Source: a virus
Virus record (IMG/VR): IMGVR_UViG_3300039412_000320
DNA length: 64,000 nucleotides
Strand: one strand, 5' to 3'
Positions 2,076 to 46,638 of the stretch are shown piece after piece; position 1 is the first letter of the stretch, and each line of letters opens with the position of its first letter. Position numbers and translations under genes: made by a program. The notes under the pieces are model-generated. The model was not told the origin of the DNA, did no database searches, and saw only the letters and a program-made list of their open reading frames with translations.

Positions 2076-3116
2076 GTGGTAGCCCATATAGGAAGCTACC
2101 GTATCGTTGTAGATGACCCCGGAGACGCTAAATATATTACGGCATGGACGGAGGACAACAAATGTGTTGGCAAACTATCTACCAAACGACAGAGCGACAG
2201 TGGACCCCTGAACGACTATCTCGGGATTGCACTGGTGGAAGTGAAACCACGGCATCGGGGATACGGACTGGGCAAGGCGATGTACTTTGCCCTGATGCAG
2301 TTCATGAATCCGAAATGGAAGGGAATCAAGAGCTACCTCCCGGAGAGATACAATAAGAAGCGGGTTCCCAACATCTGGCGTAGACTGCAAGGCTACAAAC
2401 TTCCCGGAGAAGAAGACTGGATGGTTGCCGACCGGGATAAGGTTGCCAAGATAGCGTCAGGTCAGGACTCCCCGGACTGGGAAGAGGATGAGGATTCTCT
2501 CCTCACCAAGAAAGCTTGGCAGGATGAGCGCTTCTCCTATTGGGGATTGCAGTTCGCCGTTGACAAAGCGGAGGGGATCATTGCCGCCAATCCCCGGCCT
2601 ACGCAGAAGGCTCCCAAGGCATTTCTCAAAGCCTTTGTTGGCACCGTGGAAGATGACAAGGCTGAGGAAGAGGGTAGAATCAACCTCATGAATGTGGGCC
2701 TGAATAAGGAACACATGCAGACCGTTGATGCTGAGAAGCCCGGTATTGTTGCTCCCCTCATTTTCAAGCCGGACAAGACTCACTCCGAACCGCAGAAACA
2801 CTACATCCTCATTGACGGAAACCACCGGGCTAAGAAGCGCCTCCAAATGGGTCTGGACTTCATGGAAGTCTACCCCCTCACCCCCGAGGAAGCGTGGCAG
2901 TGCATGGCTCCGTACACCTTCCCCAACCTGTTGAAAATCTATGTTAACCCGACCAAAAAGGTGAGGAAGAAGGCGGAAGAGCAGCCCGCCAGACTCCTCT
3001 ATGTTGACGACATGCGCCGACCCACCGCTCCTGATGTTGATTGGGTCAGGAATTATGAAGAGTTCTTCCAGTACATGACGACGCATCCCATGCCCGAGGC
3101 TATTAGTTTTGGATAA
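2076..3116 (+). CDS. GNAT acetyltransferase - ParB/Srx-like nuclease domain fusion
   Basis: GNAT motif A VKPRHRGYGLGKAMYFAL. C-terminal ILIDGNHRAKKRLQMG resembles the ParB/sulfiredoxin DGxHR motif. Confidence 0.5.
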   Translation: MVAHIGSYRIVVDDPGDAKYITAWTEDNKCVGKLSTKRQSDSGPLNDYLGIALVEVKPRHRGYGLGKAMYFALMQFMNPKWKGIKSYLPERYNKKRVPNIWRRLQGYKLPGEEDWMVADRDKVAKIASGQDSPDWEEDEDSLLTKKAWQDERFSYWGLQFAVDKAEGIIAANPRPTQKAPKAFLKAFVGTVEDDKAEEEGRINLMNVGLNKEHMQTVDAEKPGIVAPLIFKPDKTHSEPQKHYILIDGNHRAKKRLQMGLDFMEVYPLTPEEAWQCMAPYTFPNLLKIYVNPTKKVRKKAEEQPARLLYVDDMRRPTAPDVDWVRNYEEFFQYMTTHPMPEAISFG

Positions 3117-3157: not shown

Positions 3158-3946
3158 ATGCGAATGACTATTAGAGGCAATTGCACCGTTTGTGGGGGGA
3201 ACTTCAAGCGTCGTTATGCTAAGAACTCCGTTCCTATTGTGAAGCTCTGTTCTAATAAGTGCAGAAGGGAGTGGCTACAAAAGGACAAGGTCAAAAAGGA
3301 GTGCATCGTTTGTAATAAGGTATTTTCCGTAAGCGCCTCAGTAGCTTATAGATATGTCACCTGTAGTATTGAATGCAAGCGTAAACATAAGGAGGGGGAT
3401 AAAAATGGAAACTGGCGAGGCGGTATAGCGGGAAATAGAAAGAAAGAGATTCGTTCCGGTAAGCTTCGTCGTTGGCGGAAAGCGGTCTTTGAAAGAGATG
3501 GACCCCACTGTGTCTTATGCGGGTCTAGTGATGGGTTAGAGGCTGACCGCATAAAGCCATGGTCTCTCTATCCAGAGTTTAGATATGAAGTAAGTAATGG
3601 ACGGATATTGTGCAAGATTTGTCATAACAAGCACACCAGAGAGTTAGCCGCCGAACGAAAGAGACTTGAGGCATTGGGGTATGTACGGATAACTTGTCCA
3701 CGAGAGTACGAGATTTTGGTTTGTCCCAGATGTGGGGTATCTTTCCTTAACAAGAGTGGTCAGAGTATCTATTGCGGAAAAAGGTGTCAAAGAGCGGAAG
3801 GACAGAAACGGTTAAGGGTAGCTAAAGCTGCCCGTGGGGAATGTAAGTGTTGTAGCAATCCAGTTGCCCCTAATTACAGTCGTTGTATTAGATGTCTCGA
3901 AAAGCAAAGAGTGGAGATGGCTGAATACAGAAAGCCTGATGTATGA
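3158..3946 (+). CDS. HNH endonuclease with multiple CxxC zinc fingers
   Basis: Many CxxC pairs. GPHCVLCGS..LEADRIKP..N..LCKICHNKH HNH core. Ends with ATGA overlap onto the next ORF. Confidence 0.55.
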   Translation: MRMTIRGNCTVCGGNFKRRYAKNSVPIVKLCSNKCRREWLQKDKVKKECIVCNKVFSVSASVAYRYVTCSIECKRKHKEGDKNGNWRGGIAGNRKKEIRSGKLRRWRKAVFERDGPHCVLCGSSDGLEADRIKPWSLYPEFRYEVSNGRILCKICHNKHTRELAAERKRLEALGYVRITCPREYEILVCPRCGVSFLNKSGQSIYCGKRCQRAEGQKRLRVAKAARGECKCCSNPVAPNYSRCIRCLEKQRVEMAEYRKPDV

Positions 3947-4656
3947 GAGATTTAACACAACCAGAGGCAGGCGGTCTTGGACTAACCGCTGCTCGTTATG
4001 TTATTGATAACAATCTTTCCATAAAGCGGTGGTTTGTTCATTCACCCAATATAATGGAGAAAAAAGAGTTAGAAAGCCTCTTATTTAACTACTCTCCTGA
4101 TGGCTACGACTCATCTTTGTACAAGACTCCCCACGTTAATGAAGAAGAGCAAGTCTACGGTGGGAAGATAAAGGGAGGCTTCCGGGTGAAGGCTGCCCGG
4201 CGCAGAGTAAATCCCCTTCTGCAACCGTCCGGTCCGTGGCCTGAACGCTCCGCCGATTGGTCTAGGCTTTCTCAAAATGGAGGTTGGATATCTCGGGACG
4301 GGCGACCTCTCCCCATGACTCACCCCTACGAACTCCACGGAGAGTGGGCGATGGCGGAAGACCTGTGCGGCATGGATGATTCAGAGGTGGAGGAGCAGGG
4401 GGGAGAGGATTACCTCGGATATGCCGAGAACCTTGCCATGGAGAATGGGCACCTCCGGGTTGACCGGGATGCTGGTCAGTTTTCCATACAGGCACGAAAT
4501 GTCACAAAGAGCCGCCGACTCATCACCGAGGCTCTGTTGATGACGCCATTCAAGGGAGAAGTGACCTTGGAGATGGGTCCACACGACCGCCCAAACTGGT
4601 CTAAAAGCCTCATTTCCACGCAGGATGCCGCAGATTGGCTAGAAAATATTCAATGA
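3943..4656 (+). CDS. hypothetical protein
   Basis: 237-aa ORF, start overlaps upstream stop (ATGA). No recognisable motif. Confidence 0.4.
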   Translation: MRDLTQPEAGGLGLTAARYVIDNNLSIKRWFVHSPNIMEKKELESLLFNYSPDGYDSSLYKTPHVNEEEQVYGGKIKGGFRVKAARRRVNPLLQPSGPWPERSADWSRLSQNGGWISRDGRPLPMTHPYELHGEWAMAEDLCGMDDSEVEEQGGEDYLGYAENLAMENGHLRVDRDAGQFSIQARNVTKSRRLITEALLMTPFKGEVTLEMGPHDRPNWSKSLISTQDAADWLENIQ

Positions 4657-4664
4657 CAGAATAA

Positions 4665-4701
4665 ATGAACTTTCTGAAGCACTTATAGGGGGAAAGTTCA
4701 T
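4665..4701 (+). promoter_or_regulatory. RBS/start-codon sequestering hairpin upstream of GIY-YIG gene
   Basis: Perfect 10-bp inverted repeat atgaactttc / gaaagttcat. The 3' arm contains the ATG at 4700 and follows the SD aggggga. Confidence 0.5.
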
Positions 4702-5407
4702 GTTTATCTATTTGATTGTAAATCATGAAACAGGAAAGTATTATGTCGGTCAACATACAGGTCATAATCTAAAGAAGTACCTTCAACAAAAATTTTCAGA
4801 TGCCAGACACGGACGAGGGGGAAATTCTCGTCTTTATAATTCCATGCGTAAACACCCCTTTCCTCATCTTTGGTCCATCCACGCCCTCCGTTCCGATATC
4901 CAAGCTAAAGCCGAGCTTGATGAGACCGAGCGGGACTTCATCAAGTTCCTTCGTGCTCAAGACCCTGAGTATGGCTACAATCTTTGTCGTGGAGGGGAGG
5001 GGTTTACCGGACTGCATTCTTCTCAAACTTGTGCTAAAATGAGTGAAGGGGTTAAACGAGCTTGGGCTAACCCCGAAAAAAGAGCCAAGCAATCGGCAAA
5101 TCTCAAAGCTGACTGGGCTAAACCTGAGTCTTTTTCTAATCGGGTTCAAGCGATTAGGGATTCATGGGCGGACCCTTATTCTCGTTCTAATCGTATGAAG
5201 GCTTTTGAAAATCTTGATTTTCACAGTAAAATGAGCACGGTTAATAAGAAAACATGGTCTGACCCAGAGAGAAGGAAAAAACAAGCAGCACTTCAAAGAG
5301 AGCGATGGACAAACCCCGAATACCGTGCCAAAATGAGTAATCTAGCTAAAAATCAAAGCCGAGGTACGGGACAGAAGTTTGTTGAAGCACTACCACTAGA
5401 CTCTTAA
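4700..5407 (+). CDS. GIY-YIG homing endonuclease with NUMOD3-like repeats
   Basis: MFIYLIVNHETGKYYVGQHTG (GIY..YVG), conserved R/E/N downstream. Repeated W(A/S/T)NPE..R.K motifs (NUMOD3-like). Paralogue of 38479-39327. Confidence 0.75.
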   Translation: MFIYLIVNHETGKYYVGQHTGHNLKKYLQQKFSDARHGRGGNSRLYNSMRKHPFPHLWSIHALRSDIQAKAELDETERDFIKFLRAQDPEYGYNLCRGGEGFTGLHSSQTCAKMSEGVKRAWANPEKRAKQSANLKADWAKPESFSNRVQAIRDSWADPYSRSNRMKAFENLDFHSKMSTVNKKTWSDPERRKKQAALQRERWTNPEYRAKMSNLAKNQSRGTGQKFVEALPLDS

Positions 5408-5423
5408 ACTCTTTAATAGGCAC

Positions 5424-6848
5424 ATGGAAGAGCTTATCTACAAGACGGCGGGAGTTTGGGATAACCTTGACCGGGGATTCCTTGAGAAGATACACAACCA
5501 TGCCCCCGGAGTGGTTGTGGGTCATCTCAGTACTTTACTTAGGAATCAACGACTTAGGGAAATATATGAGAAAGTACTTGAAACCCCCATCAAGACCTTC
5601 AATAAACCGGAAGAGGTGGAGTTGGAGGGTGGTTCCCCCTTAAAGTGGCAAGGTGGATACGGGGTTTCCCACGGTGGTTCGATGATATTTATCAACCCCG
5701 CCATCAGCACCACCAACATTGTCAAAACTCTGTTTGAGGAAGGCGCTCACGCTATTTGGGCAGCGGAGGGGCGACCATCTAAACCGTTTGACCCCGCTCA
5801 TCCCCCCACCGAGAAAGAATATCTCTCTGACCCCGAAGAGCTTTTTGCCAAGCGTATGGCAGACCGTGCTTTCGCTATAGCTACGGGAGGGATAAAGACT
5901 GCCGCTTGGGCAGAGGCAACCGACTTCTCTTCCGACCCCCAGTGGCACGACGTGTTCTACGGAAATCCCTCGCCAGAGCGCATAAAGGCCCTTGCCAGCT
6001 TCCTTCGCTCCGACCCCAACCGCTTCATTACCCTTTATCACGGTACCGCCTCTGATTTGCCAGTGATGGAGGAGGGGTTGCTTCCGACCAGTCCCAGCAG
6101 GGCTAAATCGTATCAATCCAGTCCCGGTTACGTGTATCTCTCCGTATATCCGGGGAACGCCAAGAACTTTGGAGAACTGGCTTACCCCGGAGAGGATATC
6201 ACTGTCTACGCTGTCAATGTCACCGCCCGGCGATTACTGCCGGATACTGACCAGCTTGCCAATCAGCGGTCAGTGGGTAAGGAAGTGGGGAACAGCCTCG
6301 CTGAAAGCTTGGCAATCGGACATGGGGCACGAGTAAAGGGAGCAGTAGGTCCGATGCAGCTTTACAAGGCTGCCGCTAAAAAGTTGCGACTCCCCCCCGA
6401 CATCATAGACGGTACACGAAGCTTTCTGTGGGCTATCGTGAATGACCGGGTGATTTTTTCCTTGGAGATTGAACCCCACGTTATCTGGTTTAAACGAGTT
6501 GGACTTTCCGATTCCGGCCCGGCGTTCGACCGTATCCCCCGAGGGAGAATCTGGGTTCAATCGGCCCGTGATGAGGTCGTAATTTTTACCGAGGCAGGAA
6601 GTGGTGGTATCACGGGGCAGGCGGATTTCACCTTCGCCCCGGAGCATGTTGTAAAGGCTATGTTGCAGACCTTCCCTCAGCTTCGAGACTTTAACATCGT
6701 TGACGATATCCCTTCAAATCTTGTGGTAACCTCCTCTGTACATAAAAGAGGGGGAAGTCTCGCATCTAAGACAGCCCACATTTTATTGGCCGGAATAGGA
6801 GAAGATGACCGTGCGTACCTGAAATGGGATAGCAAACAAGCTAAGTAG
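5424..6848 (+). CDS. Multidomain protein: KptA/Tpt1-like LYHGTAS domain plus the ~90-aa GPxFDRIPRG module (paralogue of parts of the 2025-aa protein)
   Basis: ITLYHGTASDLPVMEEGL..YVYLSVYPGNAKNFG..DITVYAVNV matches E. coli KptA FLYHGTASRFLDEIKKQGL..YVHLSADEATARKVG..VILTVKA. N-terminal LSTLLRNQ vs KptA LSFVLRHK. SGPAFDRIPRG..FAPEHVV..FPQLRDFNIVDD module. Confidence 0.55.
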   Translation: MEELIYKTAGVWDNLDRGFLEKIHNHAPGVVVGHLSTLLRNQRLREIYEKVLETPIKTFNKPEEVELEGGSPLKWQGGYGVSHGGSMIFINPAISTTNIVKTLFEEGAHAIWAAEGRPSKPFDPAHPPTEKEYLSDPEELFAKRMADRAFAIATGGIKTAAWAEATDFSSDPQWHDVFYGNPSPERIKALASFLRSDPNRFITLYHGTASDLPVMEEGLLPTSPSRAKSYQSSPGYVYLSVYPGNAKNFGELAYPGEDITVYAVNVTARRLLPDTDQLANQRSVGKEVGNSLAESLAIGHGARVKGAVGPMQLYKAAAKKLRLPPDIIDGTRSFLWAIVNDRVIFSLEIEPHVIWFKRVGLSDSGPAFDRIPRGRIWVQSARDEVVIFTEAGSGGITGQADFTFAPEHVVKAMLQTFPQLRDFNIVDDIPSNLVVTSSVHKRGGSLASKTAHILLAGIGEDDRAYLKWDSKQAK

Positions 6849-6856
6849 AGAGGGGG

Positions 6857-9800
6857 GTGACCCCGACGAGGATACGTCCGACCCCGAAAAGGTTACAGAC
6901 TATGCCTGATAATCTAACCATATACCCAGTTACTCCCGAGTGGGTTTCAAAGGCGAAGGTGTTCTTAGCCGAGAAGTGGAAAGAGCGTGCCCAAGAGTTA
7001 GGTAAATCCAACCCTACGGATATGTCGGGTGCCTGCAAATTTATCTCTCTGTTCGGAAAGACGATTTTCGGGCTTGACATTCAAGGAAACTGGGGGCATC
7101 AGTACAACATCACTCCAGATGGTAAGCCTCTCGACCTTGCTGAGGGGTTTTCGGGAGAGGTTAGTTATCTTCACGATAGTGAATTTTTCAATAACCCCAA
7201 GCATAGGGAATCAATGGCGTCTTGTATGCCGAGGGTGAGGAGATGGGCTGAGGAGTTTATCCAGAGGTATCCCTTATTGGATAAAACGGCGTCCACACAG
7301 ACAAGGTGGTCTCATCCCCTGTTGAATGGGCTTAAGGCGGAAACACGCAAGGCTCCTACCTTCGAGGACTTCAAGCATGACTTCTCCATAGACATTAAGC
7401 ATGGACTGTATTTCCATGTCACCGACAACCCCAACTTCACTATCGACCCGGCGAAGGGTCCTCGGGATATGTCCAGCATGGGAGGCGGGACACCTGTGCC
7501 GGGAAAGTTGATGGTTACTTCTCACTTGGAGAATTGGACGGATTACTACGAAAGCGACCGGGCGTATGTCGCCGTCATTGACATGTCGGAAGTGCCGAGG
7601 GAATCCTACCATCAGGTAAGCCGGGGATTCGGCAATGAGTTTTGGGTGGAGAACCCGCAGGCGGTTAAGGTAGCGGCGGTCATGCCAGTTAAAGAGGCTA
7701 TCAAGCTGGACCGCACATATCAGAACGTTCTGGACCTTCACTCTGATGAAGACCTGTTGGAGTTCTATAACCAGTTCCACGCCCCAGCAGAACCCGAGTG
7801 GAAGCCGCCCAAGGAGCAGGGTAAACTTCCCTTCCGGGGTAAGGGCATTCCCGTAGTCGCTTATGAGCCTTGCGATTTTGAGTTACTGTGGGCAACTTGG
7901 CATAACAAAGTGCTGTTGACCGATGACATGGGTCTCTGGCATGTTAAATGGTTTCAAGAACTCAATCAGCATTCTCAACGGCATGACCCCATTCCTTCAT
8001 GGGGACCGGAGTTTGATAAAGTTCCTCGGGGAAGGGCGGAAGTCAATAAGAAGAAGAAGCGAGTCCGGCTGTACACCGATGCCGCACCCAAGGGGTCAAG
8101 AGCAGGTGAATCCATTACAGGAGAGGTTGACTTTGACTTTACCCCCGAGGAAGTAGTAGCCAAGATAAAGCAGAAGTATCCCTCACTCCGGGACTTTGAG
8201 TTTGTAGATGAGGTTGCTCCTCGGATAATGGGCAAATGGGCAGCCGATGAGTTTGAATACCCTCAGATTGCCTACCATGTCAGCCGTCGCCGTAGCCGGA
8301 ACTCCATTCTAAAAAATGGATTGCAGATGTACCACAAGCAGCAGTATGAGGATGTGGAGCACGAGCCAGCGGTGTATTTGTTCGGTAGCCTCACTGATGC
8401 CGAGAACTGGGTAGGTGAGCAGCAGCCCTACACAGGACAAGCTTGTGACATCTGGGAAGTGAAAGTCCCACAAGGGGAAGGAACGTTTTGGCCGGACTTC
8501 GAGGTTCGGCACGAATACCCCACGGCGTGGAAGTATCTCTGGGATATTCCTCCACAAAATATCAAGCTCATCAAGACTATATCGCTCCCCAAGCAGGCGG
8601 CTCTACCCACTGGAAAAGCCATAGATGACCTCGGGATATCCGGTCAGCAGGGATGGTCATATGACGAGCCGTTCCCGGACCGGCATAATGATTTCTACGA
8701 GGACGACCAAGTTCAGAATCCCCACAATGAGCACCCCCTGACCGCCTCTCTATCCCCGGCCTACACCGAGGAAGTAAAGAAACTGGAATACGAGCACGAG
8801 CTTATCTCCTTGGCGGAGGAGATGGGGAACTTCGAGCGGGTGGTGTGGGAGCGCCAGCCGGTCCTCAAGACTCACATGTTGGACACCGTGGGCTTGGCAG
8901 GCTCCGCAAACGACTACCCACATCTACGGGCCGTCCATGTGGGTGACCCCGACTATTGGTTCAGTCGGCTGACAGAAGATTACAGCCGTGACTCCAAGGC
9001 GTGGGTGGTGGAGATATATCCCACCGAAGATGACTATCTGTGTGATGATGTGCAGTATGCCATGGACCCTAGCGGTGGAGACAAAGCATATAGCGCCATT
9101 CTCATCACTCCTCGCACTCAGTTGGTGGAGGGTAAGGATTTCCGGTACGTGAAGGAATTGACGGAGGAAGACCTCCCCGAAGTCTATGATGAAGATGACG
9201 GGTTTGGTTTCAAGGACGCTGCTATTAAAAAGACAGTCATCATGTGGGTTCGTCATGAGGGAAAGCTTTACACCACCGTACAGGTTGGGGGCAAGAGCCA
9301 TGCCCAGTGGTTGGAAGAACTGAGCCTACCGTTCTCCGGTCCTTCCTACGACCGAATAGAACGAGGGGTAGCGATTGTAGACCGAGGGCACAGAGTCGTT
9401 CACCTCGTCAAGAACGCCGGGGGATACACGCCCAATGACGTAGTGGAATACATCAAGAATCGGTACAATCTGAAGGAGTTTATATTCGTTGATACGGAAA
9501 GCTCCGACACGGGTATTGTAGCCTTCAAAAAAGTTGCCAGTGACGATGCTTACTACGATGCGGCAGAGGCGTTCTTTGACCGGGAGAGCGTGGTAGCCGT
9601 AGAAGTAATCACCGAATACATGCAGCACGTCCGCCAGAAGAGGTATCGTCAGCAGTGGAATGTCGTGCCCGCCGCCCGGCTCATCAAAATTTGGGAAGAC
9701 TACATGAAGACGGGGTTTGTCCGGGACTCAGCGGGTCTTAATCAGATAGCGGAAACCGTCATTGACAACTGCTTTAAGATTTACGTCAATTCCATCCTCT

Positions 9801-12800
9801 GCGGTCATAGTGCGATGGGGCCAGAAGAGTATGCTTTGGAGATGCTGGAAAGGGAAGGTATATCCAAGAAATTCCCGGAGGACTACTTTAAGAGGGCACC
9901 AGACTACTTTGATACCCCGGAAGGCGGCTGGAGGATAAGTGACCAAGCTGAGGGGCGTTTGATGAATCTCGTGCAAGGGGTGTACCTTGCCAAGAGTGAT
10001 GAAGACAAGTTACAAGCGCTTGATAAGGTCTTGCAGTTTTCCCACCCCCGCAGCGACCTGTCAAGCTGGCTGGTGCAAGGCGGAAGGACCACCTTGAATC
10101 GGCTCTTCACCGGCATGAATGAATATGAGCGGTGGGAGCAATACGGCGGCGTGGAGGAGGCAAAAGAGTTAAACAAGGAGTTCAATAAGGGTAGGAATGC
10201 CCCCCTTATTCCCAAGGAGGCGTGGAGCACGGAGCCGGGCGGAGAGCCGCTCAAGCCCGAGACTCAATCCACTATCGCTGAGATGGTAGCGGATATACGC
10301 AAGATATACCCTGAGTGCCAGCGCATCTCCTTGGCAGGCTCCGCCGCTCGTGACGAACTCAAACCCAAGTCTGACATTGATGTGGTCATTGATTTCCCCA
10401 AGGGCACTCCCGCATGGGATATGGTGGAAAGAGACCAACCACTTTGGGACAAGTACCAACAGGTGGAAGGTCGGATGGTGGACTTCATCATCCATGTAAA
10501 AGGTGGACCGCACGCCGGGCAGTATGATTACCGGGAGGAGTTGGGTCTCCCCAATCCCATGAAAACTTTGTGGGAGGCTACAACCAAGACCGCTTCCTTC
10601 TCCGTTGAAGGTGAGGGATGGCTGACCCCCGATGGTCGTTTCCTCCCCAACGCTTTCGGTGAAAAGCACGAAGACAGCGCCCTGCGCCTCGGGTTTTTAA
10701 CCAAGGAAGAAGCCAAGAAGATAAAGAACGACACCCAGCGGAAAGAGCAGGTCATTGCCAAGGGGAACATTCGGGTTGGATTCTCTAACACCGGCAACAC
10801 CATCTTCTTTGAGTCAAAGACTCTTGATGCCGATACCAAGAACCTGATAGGTATGGGCTTGGAGAATCTGCCGAGAGGCGTTCGTAAGGTCTCAGTTTCA
10901 ACCCAAGATGAGATGTATTACCTGTGGACTTTGCAAGAAGCTCAAGAGGTTTTTTGGGGTAATGAGCCGATGCCCCAAAACATGGCCTACCTGAGCGTGG
11001 CTTCCAAGACCGCCGCTCTCCCCGGCCTCGGACTCCTCCAGCCTGGACACGGGGATGATTCCAGTGCGTTTGACCCCGGCTATTACATGACCGAGGGGTG
11101 CGGTATATTTGCTGTGGATGCTGATTACCGGTACTGGGGGAAGGACGTGATTCAACCCCTGATGACCGCTAAGACTGCCAAGACCGCCTCGGAATGGGGA
11201 GGTTTCTGTCCCCGTTGTGGTTCGGACCAGACAGCGTGGGCGATGCACTCTGCGACCACTGACACCTATTTCTGCATGGATTGCAAGGGCAGCACCGACA
11301 TTGAACGGGACATGCACCCCGACTTACGGTCGGCTATGAAGATAGCTGGATTGGTAGGATACCCGTGGGCGATATGGGAGGGCAAGGTTCTCCTTAGCCC
11401 GAGGGGAATGGCACACACCGACTGGTTCTCTCGTATGGGAATCCCCGACCGAGGACCGGAGTTTGACCGCATCCCAAGGGGCAACTTTTACATTGACAAA
11501 GCTAAGAGGCAAATCTACGTCTGGACGGATGCCGAGACTTATGACTACTCTAAGAACCCCTCAGAAGAGAGCCTAGACGATACGGTGGTTTTTGGTCCAT
11601 GGGGAGGAAGGAGATTCGACCTTGAATTTACTCCTCCCGAGGTGATAGAAGCCATCAAGCGAAAGTACCCCTACACCGAAGCTTATGAGGTGGTTGACTG
11701 GATGCCGCCCGGCTCCGTTCACAAGTGGAGTTCCGGCGAGTGGTGGAGGCGTTGGCGCAAGACCTATCTTATCTCCAAGGGTACCATCCTCTACCACGGC
11801 ACAACGGAAGATTTCCCGGCAATGGACATCCAAACCCCGGCATGGTTTAGCACCTCTGAATCTGTTGCCGAGTACTTTAAGGCGTGGCATGGCGGCGAGG
11901 AGGGCGAGCAACGCATTCTCAAATTCCAAGTCACCAAGCCTATCCGTCTCCCAAGGATAGATGGTTCGGAAGACCTTGAAAGACTCGCTGATATGTTCAA
12001 CTTCCCCAGCCCGCTAAGTGGGCATGATTATGTGGAAGACCTTGCCCAAGTCCTCCCCGGCTGGATTATCCCCCACAACTACCCGGACGGCGATGATATC
12101 CTGCTCGTCAGTGACCGGGACATCATACCCATCAATGAGCCGGAAGAGGAAGAAGAGGAAATCTCGCAGGAGGGTTTGCCCCCCGGAGCTTGGAGGAACA
12201 ACTCTGGTCTCCCCGGCTATTGGACTCGTGAGGGTACCACCACCATTTACCACATGACACCCGAGGAGATAGCGGAGCGGGAACAGAGGTTGCAGAAGCG
12301 GTCAGCGGCGGAGCCGGTCAAGGCTGAGGAGGCGACGTGGAGCCGTCCGCTCTACCACGGCACCTCGGCTTACCGGGCGAAGAAAATAAAGGCCCAGAAG
12401 AGCTTCTACGGTGAGACCGAGGGCTACAACGAGATGGGGGTGGGGGTCTATACCCACCCGTCCATGAACCGCACCAGCCCATGGGCAGCGGGCCGGGCGC
12501 AGGGAGCTTTCATGGAGCTTCATTTCACCCGTCCTCTAAAGTTGGCAGTGAAGAATCCGCAAGGCGAGTGGGTATCCTCCATGGGAGGAGAAAGTCATCG
12601 GTTTATTAGCAAGGCACCGACGCAGAGAGAACTCGTTGACGCCGGATACGATGGTATCTACGATAAGCACGGCACTACGCAGGTTCCCCACCAAGTGCTT
12701 CTGTTCAATCAGCCGGTGCTGGGGTCGGGCGGGGCACACAAACTCAATCAACTGATTGACTGGGACAAGGTCCGCATTATCAACTTCAACGAGTCCCAGC

Positions 12801-12934
12801 ATGGTTACCTCAAGGGGTTGGAGAACACCGAAGAAGCACCCCATTACCGGGGAGCTTCTCAAATGACCGCCGCCGATGACCGGCCCATGCCCAAGGAGTT
12901 TGTCACCACCAAGAACCTCAAGACTAACATTTAG
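6857..12934 (+). CDS. Giant polyvalent protein (2025 aa): transglutaminase-like Cys protease, 3 KptA/Tpt1-like domains, 3 copies of the GPxFDRIPRG module, MNT nucleotidyltransferase, zinc ribbon
   Basis: Uninterrupted 6 kb ORF with GTG start after SD agagggggg. GACKFISLF..GHQYNITPDGKPLD (C-H-D TGase-like). GSAARDELKPKSDIDVVIDFP (GS..DxD MNT). CPRCGSD..FCMDCKG. IAYHVS, ILYHGTT and PLYHGTS domains. Confidence 0.7.
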   Translation: MTPTRIRPTPKRLQTMPDNLTIYPVTPEWVSKAKVFLAEKWKERAQELGKSNPTDMSGACKFISLFGKTIFGLDIQGNWGHQYNITPDGKPLDLAEGFSGEVSYLHDSEFFNNPKHRESMASCMPRVRRWAEEFIQRYPLLDKTASTQTRWSHPLLNGLKAETRKAPTFEDFKHDFSIDIKHGLYFHVTDNPNFTIDPAKGPRDMSSMGGGTPVPGKLMVTSHLENWTDYYESDRAYVAVIDMSEVPRESYHQVSRGFGNEFWVENPQAVKVAAVMPVKEAIKLDRTYQNVLDLHSDEDLLEFYNQFHAPAEPEWKPPKEQGKLPFRGKGIPVVAYEPCDFELLWATWHNKVLLTDDMGLWHVKWFQELNQHSQRHDPIPSWGPEFDKVPRGRAEVNKKKKRVRLYTDAAPKGSRAGESITGEVDFDFTPEEVVAKIKQKYPSLRDFEFVDEVAPRIMGKWAADEFEYPQIAYHVSRRRSRNSILKNGLQMYHKQQYEDVEHEPAVYLFGSLTDAENWVGEQQPYTGQACDIWEVKVPQGEGTFWPDFEVRHEYPTAWKYLWDIPPQNIKLIKTISLPKQAALPTGKAIDDLGISGQQGWSYDEPFPDRHNDFYEDDQVQNPHNEHPLTASLSPAYTEEVKKLEYEHELISLAEEMGNFERVVWERQPVLKTHMLDTVGLAGSANDYPHLRAVHVGDPDYWFSRLTEDYSRDSKAWVVEIYPTEDDYLCDDVQYAMDPSGGDKAYSAILITPRTQLVEGKDFRYVKELTEEDLPEVYDEDDGFGFKDAAIKKTVIMWVRHEGKLYTTVQVGGKSHAQWLEELSLPFSGPSYDRIERGVAIVDRGHRVVHLVKNAGGYTPNDVVEYIKNRYNLKEFIFVDTESSDTGIVAFKKVASDDAYYDAAEAFFDRESVVAVEVITEYMQHVRQKRYRQQWNVVPAARLIKIWEDYMKTGFVRDSAGLNQIAETVIDNCFKIYVNSILCGHSAMGPEEYALEMLEREGISKKFPEDYFKRAPDYFDTPEGGWRISDQAEGRLMNLVQGVYLAKSDEDKLQALDKVLQFSHPRSDLSSWLVQGGRTTLNRLFTGMNEYERWEQYGGVEEAKELNKEFNKGRNAPLIPKEAWSTEPGGEPLKPETQSTIAEMVADIRKIYPECQRISLAGSAARDELKPKSDIDVVIDFPKGTPAWDMVERDQPLWDKYQQVEGRMVDFIIHVKGGPHAGQYDYREELGLPNPMKTLWEATTKTASFSVEGEGWLTPDGRFLPNAFGEKHEDSALRLGFLTKEEAKKIKNDTQRKEQVIAKGNIRVGFSNTGNTIFFESKTLDADTKNLIGMGLENLPRGVRKVSVSTQDEMYYLWTLQEAQEVFWGNEPMPQNMAYLSVASKTAALPGLGLLQPGHGDDSSAFDPGYYMTEGCGIFAVDADYRYWGKDVIQPLMTAKTAKTASEWGGFCPRCGSDQTAWAMHSATTDTYFCMDCKGSTDIERDMHPDLRSAMKIAGLVGYPWAIWEGKVLLSPRGMAHTDWFSRMGIPDRGPEFDRIPRGNFYIDKAKRQIYVWTDAETYDYSKNPSEESLDDTVVFGPWGGRRFDLEFTPPEVIEAIKRKYPYTEAYEVVDWMPPGSVHKWSSGEWWRRWRKTYLISKGTILYHGTTEDFPAMDIQTPAWFSTSESVAEYFKAWHGGEEGEQRILKFQVTKPIRLPRIDGSEDLERLADMFNFPSPLSGHDYVEDLAQVLPGWIIPHNYPDGDDILLVSDRDIIPINEPEEEEEEISQEGLPPGAWRNNSGLPGYWTREGTTTIYHMTPEEIAEREQRLQKRSAAEPVKAEEATWSRPLYHGTSAYRAKKIKAQKSFYGETEGYNEMGVGVYTHPSMNRTSPWAAGRAQGAFMELHFTRPLKLAVKNPQGEWVSSMGGESHRFISKAPTQRELVDAGYDGIYDKHGTTQVPHQVLLFNQPVLGSGGAHKLNQLIDWDKVRIINFNESQHGYLKGLENTEEAPHYRGASQMTAADDRPMPKEFVTTKNLKTNI

Positions 12935-13310
12935 TTTTTAGTGCGTTTACCATCCTGTCAAAATCAACATCAGGAAAAGCACCTCGTGCCCTATTATAAA
13001 TCCAACAAGTAAGGCGAGTATTTTCTGGTGAATAATCTCCTGTTTGATTTCTGCGGTCTAAGGAGGGACTAAATGAGTTTGTTCTACTTCCTTTACCATT
13101 ACCAACATTTAACTCAAGGGGTAGGTTAGTTACTTCACATACTCCCCGTTCTAATTTTTTTCTAATCCAGTCCTGAGTTATAAGACACTGCACTTTATCC
13201 TTTATTGCTCTTTTCCGAGCATTGTTGAGCATGAAAGCCGCCCGGCCCTTAGTTGTGGTGTAGTATTTTGAAAACTTACGCCAATTTTGTTCTCGTTCCT
13301 TAGTTGTCAT
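12924..13310 (-). CDS. HNH-family (SxDRxxxxGxY type) homing endonuclease-like
   Basis: SPSLDRRNQTGDYSPENTRLTCWIYNRA parallels the 1-483 and 63122-63874 motif. Confidence 0.5.
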   Translation of the reverse strand: MTTKEREQNWRKFSKYYTTTKGRAAFMLNNARKRAIKDKVQCLITQDWIRKKLERGVCEVTNLPLELNVGNGKGSRTNSFSPSLDRRNQTGDYSPENTRLTCWIYNRARGAFPDVDFDRMVNALKTKC

Positions 13311-17356: not shown

Positions 17357-19843
17357 TTAGCTGGTAGCAGCTTTGGTAGCAGAGGCTTCCTCGTTAACAG
17401 CAACATCTTCGGCGACCAGTACACCCTCGGCAACACGGGTGAAACTAAGGTCTTCGTTGTCTTTATCCACTACGATGAGGTCTCCCATGTTGACTTGTTT
17501 GGTGTTAAGAAAACGGGAAAGCCGCTTCACTACCAGCTTCTCTATTATCCGCTTGAGAGGACGTGCCCCGTTCTTTAAGTCCGTGCCTTGGGTTATCAGC
17601 AGGTCTTTGGCGGCGGGGGTGAACTCCAAGACAAACTGCCGGAGGTCTCGCATCTTTAACACCCGGCTCTGCACCTGTTCGATTTCCAGTTCCACCACCT
17701 GTTTGAGTTGCTTCTTATCCAAGGAGTGAAACACCACTATCTCATCTATGCGGTTGAGGAACTCCGGGGTGAAGCGTTTCTTGGCGGCTTCCAGTCCTGC
17801 TGTCTCCACTTCTTTGTTGAACTCCTCACTGCTCTTTGTGGAAGACCCGGCAAACCCCAATCCACCTCGGGCGAGATATTGCATTTCTCGGGAGCCGAGA
17901 TTTCCCGTCATGATGATGAGGCATTTATCGAAGGTGCTTTGCTTGTTGTCACCCAAGGTAAGTGTGCCTTTGTCAAGTATTCCAAGTAACAAGTTCCACA
18001 GGGCGTCGTTAGATTTCTCAAACTCGTCAAAGAGTAAAAGTGTCAATTTTAACTCTTCGGTGTGGTGGGCATCCAGACTTTCCTGACGTAAGTAGGCTGG
18101 TGTATCCCGGTGTCCTAGATAACCCGGAGGAGAGTTATGTACTTGAAAACAAACCATATAGTATGATTTATCTTTTATGGATAAATCGTACACCATCCCC
18201 TTGTACAGTTCTCGTTCAATCTTTTTTATTCGGGTGTAGATATAGTCATCATCCACATAAGACATACGTTGAATTCCCGAATTTCCCAAGTTTAGAAGGT
18301 TGAGGCTTTTCCCGACTATGCGGAGGTTACTGGCAAACTGTGCTATTTGGTCTCCGGCTACGTATAGCCGGTAACGAGTGGATGCCTTATACCCCCGCTT
18401 ATCCTTCGGGTGTTGCTCCTGCATTTGGACTGCGTACCCCAAGTTATGAAGGAGGAATTGTATCTGGAAAGCCAAAGTTTCGGAGCTTGTGGCGTAGTCA
18501 ATGCGGCGGCAAACAGTCTTCCCCCCATCCCCCAAGATTGCCGTATCTAAAAAGTCGTAGGCTAGTTCTGGGCGTAAGTCGGAGACCCACGCTGGAAAAC
18601 GCTTGCGAAGAGCATGGTCACCAAAAAGGTCAGTCATCATAAGACTTATGGGTCGAGAGGAAAGGTATATCCGATAACTGCTCTTTCGCTCTTTCACCCT
18701 TATGTGAACGTCCCCAAACACCCTGTATATAAGCTCTCTCACCTCTTGAATGCACGGGCTGTCCTGCCCGTGTTTTCCGAATGTAAAATTGATGGATTTC
18801 TTGCTTTTGGAGTTTCCACCTTCGCTAACGTAAAATCCGGCCAAGCGCATAAAATCAGAGCTTACAGGTATAAAGCGGGGGAGCTTTTTTTTCGTCGCCG
18901 TTGACCAGATGTCTTTGTTATCAGACTTAAATCTGGGAAGGCCCCTAGTATATTCGGCTAAGTCGAGGGTTACGTCTTGGAGGGAAGATTTATGGCGAGG
19001 GTATACCACTACATCCCCCGCTTTAAGGTCTCCCGCCGCTATATCTTTAAGATTATTCGGTGAGCAAAACGTGCTGAGGAGCCGTCCCCTCTTTGTCGTC
19101 GCCCGGTTTTTCGTGCATGGGTCCTGAATGGCCCTTATTTCATGCCAAGGAGTGCATCCCACGGGTATGTTGGTGTTTCCAGCCGTTAGTTTTACTATTT
19201 CTCCGGCATATTCGTGGCTATGGGTTTCAATAACAGGGTGCGGTTCCCCATTTTCCCCACTTATGCTAGCGTTTTTTTCGACTTTTTCTATAGGTAGAAC
19301 AGTGCCTCCGGGAAACATCACCCGTGTTCCCGTAATGAAACACCCCACCAATTTGGAAATCTCGTGAGAGTGTTGAAATTCTGCACAATCAACTTTTTTG
19401 AGAGCCTTTTTGGTGCCGAAGAGAAGCTCCGCCATTACTTCAATGATGTAGGTCTTCCCGCAACCGGTGGGACCGAGGAATATTAGATTTCCGACAGGAT
19501 GGTCAGGCGGGGCTAAACCAGCACGGAAGGTTTCGTATGCGTCTACGAGTACCTCAATTGCCCGTGTCTGTCCGACGATAAGATGCTTTAGGCTGCTGGC
19601 AAGTTCTTCCTCAGCCTCGCTCTTGATGTTAGGGTCAAGCCGTTTGCACTGCTTTTTAGGCATTCTTGGCACTGCTTCTCGTCTAAGCATCAGGGTAATT
19701 TCCGGTTCCTCATTACATGATAAGTTCCGTAGTTCGTTTCCTATTTGATGCGTAAAATGCACGGGGTGCGCCCATACTGAAACGCACCCCGTTGACTTGC
19801 GGCAGAGAGAAGGGTGCTTTCTTCCTTTCCCTTCAGTTATCAA
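17357..19843 (-). CDS. Clp-family AAA+ ATPase (ClpA/B/C D2-like) interrupted by an intein; true start possibly the internal Met near 19690
   Basis: Walker A GPTGCGKT. SKLVG[intein]SPPGYLG corresponds to the conserved ClpB SKLIGAPPGYVGY. LLLFDEFEK, GARPLKRII ClpB-like C-terminus. Confidence 0.8.
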   Translation of the reverse strand: MITEGKGRKHPSLCRKSTGCVSVWAHPVHFTHQIGNELRNLSCNEEPEITLMLRREAVPRMPKKQCKRLDPNIKSEAEEELASSLKHLIVGQTRAIEVLVDAYETFRAGLAPPDHPVGNLIFLGPTGCGKTYIIEVMAELLFGTKKALKKVDCAEFQHSHEISKLVGCFITGTRVMFPGGTVLPIEKVEKNASISGENGEPHPVIETHSHEYAGEIVKLTAGNTNIPVGCTPWHEIRAIQDPCTKNRATTKRGRLLSTFCSPNNLKDIAAGDLKAGDVVVYPRHKSSLQDVTLDLAEYTRGLPRFKSDNKDIWSTATKKKLPRFIPVSSDFMRLAGFYVSEGGNSKSKKSINFTFGKHGQDSPCIQEVRELIYRVFGDVHIRVKERKSSYRIYLSSRPISLMMTDLFGDHALRKRFPAWVSDLRPELAYDFLDTAILGDGGKTVCRRIDYATSSETLAFQIQFLLHNLGYAVQMQEQHPKDKRGYKASTRYRLYVAGDQIAQFASNLRIVGKSLNLLNLGNSGIQRMSYVDDDYIYTRIKKIERELYKGMVYDLSIKDKSYYMVCFQVHNSPPGYLGHRDTPAYLRQESLDAHHTEELKLTLLLFDEFEKSNDALWNLLLGILDKGTLTLGDNKQSTFDKCLIIMTGNLGSREMQYLARGGLGFAGSSTKSSEEFNKEVETAGLEAAKKRFTPEFLNRIDEIVVFHSLDKKQLKQVVELEIEQVQSRVLKMRDLRQFVLEFTPAAKDLLITQGTDLKNGARPLKRIIEKLVVKRLSRFLNTKQVNMGDLIVVDKDNEDLSFTRVAEGVLVAEDVAVNEEASATKAATS
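18134..19342 (-). mobile_element. Intein (403 aa) with LAGLIDADG homing endonuclease inside the GAPPGYVG motif of the Clp ATPase
   Basis: Starts CFITG (Cys1) directly after LVG, ends VHN followed by S (+1 Ser). Internal LAGFYVSEGG and LDTAILGDGG LAGLIDADG motifs. Confidence 0.8.
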
Positions 19844-21370: not shown

Positions 21371-23584
21371 CTATGAACTCAGTAGTTGCCAGCTTAGGAA
21401 CGCCCCGGTAGTGACGGTAATGCCGTTCAAGTTTGCTCCATACAGATTGATGACGTATCCCGCCATGGTCGGAGTCACGTCGTTGGTGTGGGTCTCCGAG
21501 TAAACCTGCTGCCAATCGAGATTCGTCGGGTCAGTGCTGTACCAGTAAGTCCGGGTGCTGCTGTTGTCATGAATCTTCATCCAGAAAAGTGGCGGGAAGA
21601 TGTACATGGAAGTTGCAACATTGTGGGAGAAGGCGCTGGTAGTGGTGTAGTAGTCTATTTCCAATACCGGCACAGCGTTGTTTCCCTTGCCGATGTCAAA
21701 CGTCTTGAATTTCGTCCCGTCCGACAAAGCAATACCCTCCCACCAATTGCCGTTGTAAATGGTACTGGTGCTGTACATGAACATGGGGGGTTTGATGATG
21801 AGAGCCGCAATGACCGTCCAAGGAGTGACCGGGAGGTTTACACCATAGAAGTGGATGTTGTCCGCCCCGTTACCTGTGGCACTGAGTGCCAGCATGTTAT
21901 TCTGGGCTATCAGCGTGGACGTTCCTTGGTTGACCCAAAAGAAGCTGGAGGTGGTCGGCGGGGTGAGGCCAGAAAACGGGTAGGTGCTGCCGCTAGATGG
22001 CCCAGTGTAGCCGGTATATCCAGTAATGTTCGGCCCTGTGTAACCCGTATACCCCGTCGCACCTGTGGAAGACGCCGAACCGGGCGGGCCAGTATCTCCA
22101 GTATAGCCGGAATACCCCGTATACCCCGTAAAATTCCCCGGCCCGGTATAGCCCGTATAACCAGTTGTTCCAGCGCCCGTGTAACCGGTGTAGCCGGTGA
22201 ACGCTCCCGGCCCGGTTGGGCCGGTGTATCCAGTGTAACCGGTGAAATTGCCCGGACCCGTATATCCGGTGAACCCGCTATAGCCGGTATACCCGCTGGG
22301 TCCCGTGTAGCCTGTGGGTCCCTGTGCTCCCACGGGCAGCACGGAGCAGATGACCGAGGCATAGTAGGCGGTGGCGGCAGGGTCTTGGGTATTGAAGTTC
22401 GCCACGATGGGTGCCACGGGGATGCTTGCCGACGATGCGTAGCCGAGGCAGAACTGCTGCCCGTCAAACCCCGAGCCGCCACTGAAGGTGATGGTGTTGG
22501 TGTAGGGAGAGCTAAGGGGAGGGGTATTGAACGAGAATGCGTAGGAGACCGCCGCCCTGTTGCAGCAGAACGAGCCGAAGACCGTGGCGGCGGTATTGAT
22601 GCTGATGGTGGAGGACGTGAGCGTGCCTGCACCGTTGTTAATCGTGGCTATGCCGCTGGCGAAGACGAGCGAGGGCGTACCGGCGACCTCCACCACGCTC
22701 CAATACATATTGCCGTTGTTGACGCCGACGCTTCCTGCCCACGTCTCGCCATCACCGCCGATCACCGTCCTTGACCACACGGTGACGACGATGTCCGAGC
22801 CGGACGAGTAGGAAGTCTGCTGCGTCAAGCCTGCCGGTGGGGTGACCGTCCCCCCGTAGTAGTTGCCCTCAAGGAAGAAGAGGAGCGTGTTCCCGGCTAC
22901 CGGCGTGGTAGCCAAGGTGATGGTGAACGAGGTGGAGTTGGACTTGACAGCCTGCGCCTGCACCACGGCTGGAGGCGTGGCAGAGAGGTATCCCGTATAA
23001 CCGGTAAAGCCCGTGTAGCCTGTGAACCCACTGTATCCCGTGTACCCAGAGTAACCTGTGAAGTTACCCGGCCCGGTATAGCCAGTGTACCCGCTCGGGC
23101 CGGAATATCCGGTGTACCCTGTAAACCCAGTAAAGTTGCCGGGGCCGGTATACCCCGTGTAGCCACTTGCTCCCGTGTAACCCGTATACCCAGTGAACCC
23201 TGTGAAGTTACCGGGGCCGGTATAGCCCGTGAACCCGGTGTAGCCGGTCGGCCCAGAATACCCTGTATAACCCGTAAAATTGCCGGGGCCAGTGTAGCCG
23301 GTATACCCAGTTGGCCCAGTCGCTCCCGAGGAACCCATCTGAACTTGGGAGTAGGTGCCCGGCGACCCCACGGTGACCAACTGCCAGAAGGTCTGGTCGG
23401 AGCGGACGTACACCATCATGCCGACTTCTTGACGAAGCTGGGGGATAGCGTCACGGGCGGTGTAGTCGTCTACCTCACGCCATCCCCCGAGGCCGTAGAT
23501 AGCCTCGTGCGTCGGGAAGGTGTCGGCGTCGGTGAACGGGACAACCTGCGCAGCTACGTTTACTCCTGTGAGTGGTGTCGGCAT
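21371..23584 (-). CDS. Tail fibre protein with collagen-like G-X-Y repeats
   Basis: Two blocks of GYTGYTGPGNFTGYTGYSGPTGYTGFTG triplet repeats. Ser/Thr/Asn-rich beta-type C-terminus. Strong SD upstream. Confidence 0.7.
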   Translation of the reverse strand: MPTPLTGVNVAAQVVPFTDADTFPTHEAIYGLGGWREVDDYTARDAIPQLRQEVGMMVYVRSDQTFWQLVTVGSPGTYSQVQMGSSGATGPTGYTGYTGPGNFTGYTGYSGPTGYTGFTGYTGPGNFTGFTGYTGYTGASGYTGYTGPGNFTGFTGYTGYSGPSGYTGYTGPGNFTGYSGYTGYSGFTGYTGFTGYTGYLSATPPAVVQAQAVKSNSTSFTITLATTPVAGNTLLFFLEGNYYGGTVTPPAGLTQQTSYSSGSDIVVTVWSRTVIGGDGETWAGSVGVNNGNMYWSVVEVAGTPSLVFASGIATINNGAGTLTSSTISINTAATVFGSFCCNRAAVSYAFSFNTPPLSSPYTNTITFSGGSGFDGQQFCLGYASSASIPVAPIVANFNTQDPAATAYYASVICSVLPVGAQGPTGYTGPSGYTGYSGFTGYTGPGNFTGYTGYTGPTGPGAFTGYTGYTGAGTTGYTGYTGPGNFTGYTGYSGYTGDTGPPGSASSTGATGYTGYTGPNITGYTGYTGPSSGSTYPFSGLTPPTTSSFFWVNQGTSTLIAQNNMLALSATGNGADNIHFYGVNLPVTPWTVIAALIIKPPMFMYSTSTIYNGNWWEGIALSDGTKFKTFDIGKGNNAVPVLEIDYYTTTSAFSHNVATSMYIFPPLFWMKIHDNSSTRTYWYSTDPTNLDWQQVYSETHTNDVTPTMAGYVINLYGANLNGITVTTGAFLSWQLLSS

Positions 23585-46327: not shown

Positions 46328-46638
46328 TGCTACCCGTACAAGTGTTCAGGGCAGAGGTAGTCCGGCTGGAGAACGAACTTCAATCAGCGAAGATACGGCT
46401 GGCGGAGGCGGAGTTGCGGTGCTGCCATGCGTGGAGTAAACCGGTGTATGACCCCATCATCCACGAAGCGTACCATATCGCTGGCGACCCGCCCGGCACC
46501 ATGGGGGTTGACCGGCAACTTCCCACGGATGTGCCCCGGCAGGAAATTCCCCGTTGGATAAGGACTTGTGGACGGTGCGGGGTGGTGGAGACAACGCAGC
46601 AAACCAAGGAAAATATCACAAAGGTACCGGTGTTCTAA
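46300..46638 (+). CDS. hypothetical protein
   Basis: ORF. Confidence 0.35.
   Translation: MVSQEMGGVMLPVQVFRAEVVRLENELQSAKIRLAEAELRCCHAWSKPVYDPIIHEAYHIAGDPPGTMGVDRQLPTDVPRQEIPRWIRTCGRCGVVETTQQTKENITKVPVF

Follow-up and report, generated by a model that had tools for sequence, protein, structure and literature searches.

How does a virus come to carry a single open reading frame (ORF) of about 6 kb in which several unrelated enzymatic domains appear to be joined, and what would the product of such a frame do? This question is raised by the window analysed here, a stretch of 64,000 nucleotides of the IMG/VR virus record IMGVR_UViG_3300039412_000320, which contains on its plus strand an ORF of 2025 codons (positions 6857 to 12934). 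A first-pass annotation, made from the DNA letters, had described it as one multi-domain gene. Indeed, all 2025 codons are uninterrupted, and every motif string quoted at that time is present in the translation: GACKFISLF at amino acids (aa) 58-66, GHQYNITPDGKPLD at aa 80-93, IAYHVS at aa 471-476, GSAARDELKPKSDIDVVIDFP at aa 1161-1181, CPRCGS at aa 1451-1456, FCMDCKG at aa 1472-1478, ILYHGTT at aa 1644-1650 and PLYHGTS at aa 1831-1837. Our findings lead us to regard the product, with a probability of roughly 70%, as a polyvalent (multi-effector) protein of a large uncultivated phage that would act through the mechanism proposed below. They also show that the ORF is a recent, strain-specific fusion of two neighbouring genes. 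A domain map was built from self-comparison of the protein, the boundaries seen in homologues and two AlphaFold (AF2) models. The order of the domains is A, B, R1, Y1, C, R2, D, a nucleotidyltransferase (NTase), E, the remnant of a second Cys-His-Asp (C-H-D)-like domain, a zinc ribbon, R3, Y2 and Y3. Of these, B, Y1, Y2 and Y3 are compared below with the ADP-ribosyltransferase (ART) fold.

6857..12934, plus strand: polyvalent-protein ORF, 2025 uninterrupted codons, probable start ATG at 6902
6920..7294, plus strand: domain A (aa 22-146), candidate papain/transglutaminase-like Cys-His-Asp domain, triad C60, H81, D93
7316..7774, plus strand: domain B (aa 154-306), predicted ART fold, H187 in strand 1 (YFHVT), T221-S222 after strand 2 (LMVTS), E261 at the start of strand 5 (GNEFWV)
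7886..8215, plus strand: R1 (aa 344-453), first repeat copy, from self-BLAST
8258..8572, plus strand: Y1 (aa 468-572), small ART-like domain, similar to the beginning of the Tpt1 NAD lobe (IAYHVS...SI..NGL; AVYLF)
8762..9193, plus strand: domain C (aa 636-779), a family with standalone members that recurs in other giant proteins
9242..9493, plus strand: R2 (aa 796-879), second, shorter repeat copy, from self-BLAST and family alignment
9539..10111, plus strand: domain D (aa 895-1085), uncharacterised, widespread family
10283..10576, plus strand: minimal NTase of the Pol-beta/MNT type (aa 1143-1240), G1161-S1162, D1174-x-D1176, candidate third Asp D1209 in VDFIIH (aa 1208-1213)
10604..10963, plus strand: domain E (aa 1250-1369), recurring in other polyvalent proteins
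11201..11296, plus strand: plausible four-Cys zinc ribbon (aa 1449-1480; C1451, C1454, C1473, C1476), sub-threshold profile matches
11366..11707, plus strand: R3 (aa 1504-1617), third repeat copy, from self-BLAST and family alignment
11732..12202, plus strand: Y2 (aa 1626-1782), ART-fold domain, H1647 (LYHGT), S1665-T-S1667, D1746-D1747 (GDDILL)
12323..12847, plus strand: Y3 (aa 1823-1997), ART-like domain, motifs PLYHGTS, GVYTHPS, GYDGIY, HQVLLF

The earliest in-frame start codon is a GTG that abuts a G-rich stretch. The true start is likely to be the ATG at 6902 (aa 16), since the related proteins P0001 and P0002 begin at the residue that matches aa 16, in the 99.6% identical P0001 by the choice of the gene caller, and since the gene call on the contig that encodes P0001 (L008, JGI 3300018023) starts at the equivalent ATG.

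The assignment to the polyvalent class is supported by the finding that disparate activities are combined in one phage ORF, namely a peptidase-like domain (A), ART-fold domains (B and Y2) and a Pol-beta NTase, and that the domains and the architecture are shared with recognised polyvalent proteins. Forty metagenomic homologues of 1.2 to 3.5 thousand residues were found, encoded on contigs of about 200 to 593 kb. As many as 17 of the 40 carry the ART-PolyVal domain PF18760, and some also bear NUDIX, 2H phosphoesterase, GNAT or ParB domains. The same modules recur, in shuffled order, in many giant phage proteins. The polyvalent-protein theme suggested in the first-pass annotation thus fits these homologues well. 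Its further suggestion that the combination, with several KptA-like domains in one chain, was undescribed has to be withdrawn, because multiple ARTs as well as NTases in polyvalent proteins have already been published (Iyer, Burroughs, Anand, de Souza, Aravind 2017, PMC5512222). That paper ranks ARTs first in frequency among the protein-modifying domains of polyvalent proteins, with 1 to 12 copies per protein, and lists Pol-beta NTases among the domains as well. The present protein therefore opens no new category, since polyvalent chains that hold several ARTs together with an NTase have been known since 2017.

The likeness to the proteins described there lies in the union of a peptidase-like domain, several ARTs and a Pol-beta NTase in one giant chain, in the shuffling of domains between relatives, where they also occur as solo proteins, and in the presence of PF18760 in homologues. 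There are differences as well. Modules of the zincin metallopeptidase, MuF, ArdC or helicase/methylase kind were not found here. The peptidase candidate is papain-like, whereas the peptidase section of the 2017 paper deals with the zincin, assemblin-like, DD and LonC superfamilies, papain-like enzymes not being among them. Pfam, with its LPD models, contains nothing that B, C, D, E or R would match. Lastly, a K-T-A motif marks the domain boundaries of the present protein, and it is not mentioned in the available portions of that paper.

Because of this class membership (Iyer et al. 2017, PMC5512222) and the intact catalytic motifs, we propose that the protein would be made late, carried in the virion and delivered together with the DNA. 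Its ART domains (B with H-[ST]S-E, Y2 with H-STS-D and Y3 with an H-Y-Q-like set) might then modify proteins or nucleic acids of the host in an NAD+-dependent manner, and the NTase might nucleotidylate a target, with the outcome that a defence is disabled or the host is taken over. If the chain were cleaved between its domains at K-T-A-[AS] sites, it could act as a polyprotein that releases separate effectors.

Among the catalytic domains, B is the most widely shared piece of the protein, with 43-64% identity in 40 proteins. In the AF2 model of A plus B (mean pLDDT, the per-residue confidence score, of 82), B shows the layout of a classical ART active site: the near-invariant H187 lies in strand 1, T221-S222 follow strand 2, and the invariant E261 starts strand 5, in agreement with the pattern of [H/R], [S/T/Y] and [E/D/Q] at these three places. 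B had no match in Pfam and no profile similarity to ART-PolyVal or to Y2. Judged from the model, it seems to form an ART family of its own, which the libraries lack. This fourth ART-fold domain had been passed over in the first-pass annotation.

Y2 is firmly placed as an ART fold and a divergent relative of ART-PolyVal. Its AF2 model is confident and returned ART-fold matches. In a family of at least 14 sequences, the L-x-H-G-T, A-W, G-W, N-Y and G-x-D-I motifs are invariant, as are H1647 and D1746/D1747. An alignment of Y2 to an ART-PolyVal alignment built from homologues gave an hhalign probability of 96.4% (E-value of 1.4e-9, 114 columns), and a weak PF18760 match was seen in 13 of 14 family members. 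Y2 thus shares with ART-PolyVal, which is a Tox-ART-HYD2-like family with an H-Y-D set, both profile homology and the layout of a His in the strand-1 YHGT followed by an acidic residue before the last strands; it differs in having F-S-T-S at the position where the Tyr would be expected. The best score of the protein against PF18760 itself (13.2 bits, for Y2) stayed below the gathering threshold of 31.2 bits, and an iterated ART-PolyVal profile recovered none of the query domains at E-values≤1e-3. No experimental work on ART-PolyVal was found in the literature searched.

The relation of Y1 and Y3 to ARTs is partly supported, by profile or motif evidence. Y1 aligned to ART-PolyVal with an hhalign probability of 93.7%. 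Its family alignment places IAYHVS in register with YLYHGT and shows H472 to be invariant. A Y2 profile had pointed to 'QMYHK' as the Y1 counterpart of LYHGT, and this was dropped when the family alignment showed IAYHVS to be conserved. An unfiltered profile search with ART-PolyVal reached Y3 with an independent E-value of 0.0026, and hhalign gave a probability of 12.8% with the YHGT and GYDG motifs, which Y3 has in common with that family, in register. Standalone homologues of Y3 are 169-175 aa long.

The NTase is the sole domain above a curated threshold: it matched Pfam NTP_transf_2 (PF01909) with 26.5 bits against a cut-off of 21 bits, and NCBIfam gave weak MntA, GlnD, CCA and ANT matches. 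The characteristic hG[GS]...[DE]h[DE]h pattern with a third carboxylate is present, and D1174-I-D1176 is intact, so that the minimal nucleotidyltransferase recognised earlier from its G-S...D-x-D motif is well founded. Standalone homologues measure 103-120 aa. The domain resembles the minimal NTases of the MNT/MntA type (antitoxins of type VII toxin-antitoxin systems) in its G-S...D-x-D motif, the later Asp and a size of about 100 aa; it differs from them in that it is part of a giant chain and in that no HEPN partner was detected. Domain D was considered for the role of such a partner and rejected, as it lacks an R-x4-6-H motif and is found in relatives that have no NTase. According to the 2017 paper, the NTases of polyvalent proteins belong mainly to conjugative elements of Firmicutes, where they are fused to ArdC-N, and not to phage proteins of the present kind (PMC5512222).

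For domain A, the N-terminal transglutaminase-like protease signature reported earlier stands as far as the C-H-D pattern and the invariance of its triad are concerned; a library match that would name the family was not obtained in Pfam, NCBIfam or PDB profile searches. C60, H81 and D93 are invariant in a nine-sequence alignment that reaches down to 27% identity. In the AF2 model, a helix has C60 at its N-terminus, the second strand of a hairpin begins with H81, and D93 comes after the third strand, that is, a Cys at a helix N-terminus with His and Asp on adjacent beta-strands. The top match of A was a papain fold, and a Foldseek search of the PDB with the model of A plus B (model 1) gave nothing significant. 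The closest known enzymes are the papain-like or transglutaminase-like cysteine peptidases (e.g. PDB 2hly, PF09641; the lasso-peptide B proteases). A tblastn search of plasmids revealed homologues of A among hypothetical proteins on megaplasmids of Bosea, Pseudomonas and Methylorubrum extorquens AM1 (L002:2932-3798, L003:2953-3408, L004:553-1002, L005 and L006), all of which retain the Cys-His-Asp triad. The A and B families were aligned by hhalign with a probability of 97.7% (E-value of 2e-12). We rejected their homology, as the alignment leaves out the ART core, does not pair the conserved residues with one another and disagrees with the secondary-structure prediction; a partial duplication may lie behind the score, or an artefact of low diversity.

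How the ORF arose became clear from the DNA alignment with L008. Positions 5316-11117 of the window correspond to L008 1-5802 with 99.64% identity, and positions 11111-12873 correspond to L008 8416-10178 with 99.94% identity, while L008 holds 2,620 extra bases (L008:5803-8422) that are absent from the window. The locus in L008 consists of two genes in different frames, one encoding P0001 (1546 aa) and the next encoding a protein of at least 1325 aa. The join lies at a 7-nt microhomology and restores the reading frame across the two genes, with about 600 codons open after the junction.

11063..11117, plus strand: remnant of the second C-H-D-like domain (aa 1403-1420, ...GCGIFAV), including the junction
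11111-11117, plus strand: junction, 7-nt microhomology GCTGTGG, from comparison of the L008 and window junction sequences

The 2025-aa ORF is, therefore, a recent strain-specific in-frame fusion of two neighbouring polyvalent genes through a deletion of 2,620 bp. The deletion took out most of the C-terminal C-H-D-like domain of the first gene and, from the second gene, 741 residues with a canonical ART-PolyVal domain and a Tpt1-like ART among them. All domains downstream of the junction, with their motifs, are intact. The lost domain of about 150 aa ends the first gene in P0001 (aa 1388-1540) and is present also in P0002, P0003, P0018 and P0176. It shows a conserved Cys...His...Asp pattern, EGCGIFAVALARL...THVY...YDIKG (GCGIFAV...THVY...YDIKG), and from this pattern it would be another papain-like candidate; the ORF in the window keeps only its first 18 residues. 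In a more distant relative (L001) the same modules are spread over two adjacent genes. A 22-aa repeat in both L001 genes had been considered as the fusion junction and was ruled out by the DNA alignment, L008 giving the exact 7-nt junction. Given this origin, the particular combination of domains that was singled out earlier is an accident of recombination at the strain level. The value of the near-identical pair of strains is that it offers a direct snapshot of how architectures evolve, a polyvalent gene having been rebuilt by a single microhomology deletion.

We then have to ask whether the ORF is a meaningful unit and whether its product acts as proposed. An assembly chimera, or a recent deletion mutant with a neutral or partly defective product, would leave the two separate genes as the real units. 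This view could draw on the two-gene locus in L008 with its almost identical flanks, on the loss of most of the C-H-D-like domain, the canonical ART-PolyVal domain and the Tpt1-like ART, and on the observations that P0002 and P0003, too, end with the undeleted C-terminal domain and that no other record of the exact 2010-aa product was found. A clean microhomology of 7 nt is, however, typical of natural illegitimate recombination and too short for a misassembly by repeat collapse, for which reason a natural deletion is favoured. Moreover, the restored frame, the long open stretch behind the junction and the intact downstream domains and motifs speak for a coding unit, and in this family the genes regularly exchange domains. 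We therefore consider it unlikely that the ORF is not a meaningful unit. About equally unlikely, in our judgement, is a protein that is neither packaged nor injected and that works inside the cell as a multi-enzyme protein or polyprotein, for example as an anti-defence hub acting on NAD+/ADP-ribose immune signalling. Such a role would suit the non-structural neighbourhood, with its homing endonucleases and small ORFs and, in relatives, poly(A) polymerase and HD proteins. It would also suit the library scans of the protein, in which no packaging domain of the MuF, portal or N4-vRNAP type was detected, and those homologues in which ARTs are joined with domains that have soluble nucleotides as their substrates, namely NUDIX, 2H and cREC. 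Delivery with the DNA, as proposed above, draws on the polyvalent class and its catalytic motifs.

The first-pass annotation had assigned the three LYHGT-type domains to KptA/Tpt1, which would make them RNA 2'-phosphotransferases that repair tRNA or modify host RNA ends with the help of NAD+. Their relation to ARTs was borne out by the Y2 model and by profiles or motifs for Y1 and Y3, and an unrelated fold, which had been named as the finding to look out for, was not indicated by the Y2 model and the profiles, which point to ART. Their membership of the Tpt1 family was not. Tpt1 enzymes are defined by an N-terminal winged-helix RNA lobe and a catalytic R-H-R-R tetrad (PMC8120803). PF01885 (PTS_2-RNA) gave no match at E-values≤10 for the whole protein or any of ten segments. 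Where the winged-helix RNA lobe would be expected, an R module or another ART stands before Y1, Y2 and Y3, and the R-H-R-R tetrad was not found in them: the position of the second motif, V-H-L/V-S in Tpt1, reads V-Y-L in Y1, F-S-T-S in Y2 and V-Y-T in Y3, so that the second His (H-H-h) is missing as well. What these domains have in common with Tpt1/KptA is an ART-fold NAD+ lobe, the start of which ('LYHGT..rnL.SI...GL.P') is shared by the Y1 family. Accordingly, the best PDB matches of the Y1-family profile were seven Tpt1/KptA sequences (E-values of 1.5e-4 to 3.4e-3), confined to the first 33 residues of the lobe. For Y2, MbcT and diphtheria toxin outscored Tpt1 and the closest profile was ART-PolyVal. 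On these grounds, none of the three domains is a member of the Tpt1 family, and an RNA 2'-phosphotransferase activity seems quite improbable to us. It should be noted that several findings also tell against the polyvalent reading with its proposed mechanism. GenBank phages yielded nothing similar by megablast at the DNA level or by tblastn, and there is therefore no characterised relative to anchor a function. No structural gene directly flanks the ORF, the tail fibre gene lying about 8 kb away on the other strand. Y1, which was identified by sequence comparison, reads Y-H-V-S in place of Y-H-G-T, and a domain with such a site may be inactive; the support for Y3 is at the level of motifs plus a weak hidden Markov model match. 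Finally, it may be that the fusion was not selected for and represents a deletion variant that is neutral or defective.

The reading as a polyvalent protein built from separable parts receives a further hint from the motif at the domain boundaries.

7283..11350, plus strand: K-x-A-[ASG] linker motifs at aa 143 (7283-7294), 460 (8234-8245), 579 (8591-8602), 786 (9212-9223), 892 (9530-9541), 1244 (10586-10597), 1384 (11006-11017), 1439/1442 (11171-11191) and 1495 (11339-11350)

In the 2025-aa ORF, K-x-A-[ASG] was observed 11 times against 1.7 expected, and KTA 5 times against 0.47 expected. Nine of the 11 K-x-A-[ASG] sites fall at domain boundaries that had been inferred independently. The sites use differing codons, and the signal is therefore at the level of the protein. 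The same enrichment was seen among 208 homologues (191 KTA observed versus 55 expected, 3.5-fold), the largest of which have 8-10 copies where about one would be expected. The consensus is [AS][SA]-K-T-A-[AS], often located 5-12 residues before the 'YHGT' of an ART or directly behind a B domain. When 82 large proteins were annotated with nine profiles, 33 KTA motifs lay within 15 residues of a domain edge (10.6 expected) and 8 lay inside domains (21.6 expected; chi-square p-value of 5e-13). In the AF2 models the motifs occupy linkers of lower confidence (about 75 for the block at aa 143 in model 1, below 50 for those in model 2). KTA motifs were also noticed in the upstream ORFs at 495-2063 and 5424-6848. 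Neither this boundary motif nor the origin of the ORF by fusion had been picked up in the first-pass annotation.

Judged from their sequence and placement, the K-T-A-[AS] motifs are possibly sites of proteolytic processing, and they suggest how giant proteins of this kind could be cut into working parts. The pattern of a small residue and Ala followed by Ser or Ala is one that we take to recall assemblin-type sites. Domain A was considered as a general K-T-A protease, and this is unlikely, as most K-T-A-rich homologues are without A; for the same reason a protease acting in trans is likelier than self-cleavage by A. A more far-reaching picture, which we offer as a tentative and rather doubtful one, would have the K-T-A sites cut by a phage enzyme or, in the present lineage, by the flanking C-H-D domains. 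The giant polyvalent proteins would then be true polyproteins from which a mixture of individual effectors is set free. Among these, B would represent a new ART clade (H-[ST]S-E), and D an enzyme family that is likewise new and counts hundreds of cluster representatives.

Much of the chain consists of modules that the libraries do not know. When Pfam, PHROGs and NCBIfam were scanned with the whole protein and with ten segments, the NTase match and weak zinc-ribbon matches were obtained and nothing else. Likewise, a PHROGs search with standalone homologues of C, D, the NTase, Y1, Y2 and Y3 and with the E region of the window gave no match. Profile searches of the PDB with B plus A, Y2, Y3, C, D, E, R and A returned nothing significant, Y1 alone having the Tpt1 matches described above.

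The three copies of a module of about 90 aa that had been noticed earlier are real repeats, since all three pairings were significant in self-BLAST (aa 345-450 versus 1504-1613, E-value of 1.5e-17; aa 343-450 versus 795-878, 1.5e-8; aa 797-874 versus 1504-1608, 4.9e-9). In the family alignment, a W, an H and an R-G are invariant, and an insert is variable. R3 is modelled as a confident alpha/beta unit (pLDDT of 84-93 outside the low-confidence insert at model residues 132-159) in the order beta-beta-alpha-alpha-beta-beta, insert, alpha-beta. R stands before different catalytic domains, namely Y1, D and Y2 in this protein and B in P0003. No sequence match to R was found in Pfam or the PDB.

Domains C, D and E had been passed over in the first-pass annotation. 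The C-terminal half of C gave weak ubiquitin-like profile matches (E-values of 0.14-0.95), from which a beta-grasp element is possible. When aa 341-1440 were used as the query (E-values≤1e-10), D was the best-scoring stretch for most of the best 150 of 431 cluster representatives, and many of its matches among these 150 are standalone proteins of about 190 aa. In D, an H, a D, an H, a GG and an L are invariant, and the R and D of H-x-R-x-D nearly so; no sequence match was found in Pfam, PHROGs, NCBIfam or the PDB. E occurs in up to 6 matched stretches within one protein, and its PDB profile search gave no informative match. For these library-absent families (B, C, D, E and R) the present map supplies testable boundaries and catalytic residues. 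All five are widespread in huge uncultivated phages, B being a likely new ART family and D being among the most abundant pieces.

The zinc ribbon proposed earlier is plausible. Its four-Cys pattern is present, and the CxxC pairs CPRC and CMDC are kept in the relatives P0041 and P0044; the profile matches are all sub-threshold (Pfam Zn_ribbon_PaaD, E-value of 0.0067; Lar_restr_allev, 0.0074; NCBIfam IS1/IS1595 Zn, 0.006), and AF2 confidence is low in this region.

The surroundings of the ORF are those of a phage gene array with EndoVII-like, HNH and GIY-YIG-type homing endonuclease ORFs around it.

175-483 and 12924-13310: EndoVII-like ORFs flanking the gene array
3158-3946: HNH endonuclease ORF, splitting an upstream polyvalent gene
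4700-5407: GIY-YIG-like ORF flanking the gene array
5424..6848, plus strand: upstream 474-aa ORF in the same gene array, with R-module-like sequence and three KTA motifs
17357-19843, minus strand: Clp/ClpB-like AAA+ protein with an intein-like insert that has a LAGLIDADG homing endonuclease domain
21371-23584, minus strand: collagen-like tail fibre protein
38479-39327, 40111-41031 and 54468-55265: further homing endonuclease ORFs
46554-47576, plus strand: separate nucleotidyltransferase ORF (phrog_388)

In two relatives, the homologous genes are arranged as arrays of two or three giant genes. In P0003, the N-terminal part and the R-like region of the 474-aa ORF share one ORF with the middle of the big protein. 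Further upstream, the ORFs at 495-2063, 2076-3116 and 3943-4656 are colinear pieces of what is a single polyvalent gene of 2667 aa in L001 (L001:1-5838), with 80-88% identity. In the window, this gene is broken by a stop between the first and second pieces and by the HNH ORF before the third.

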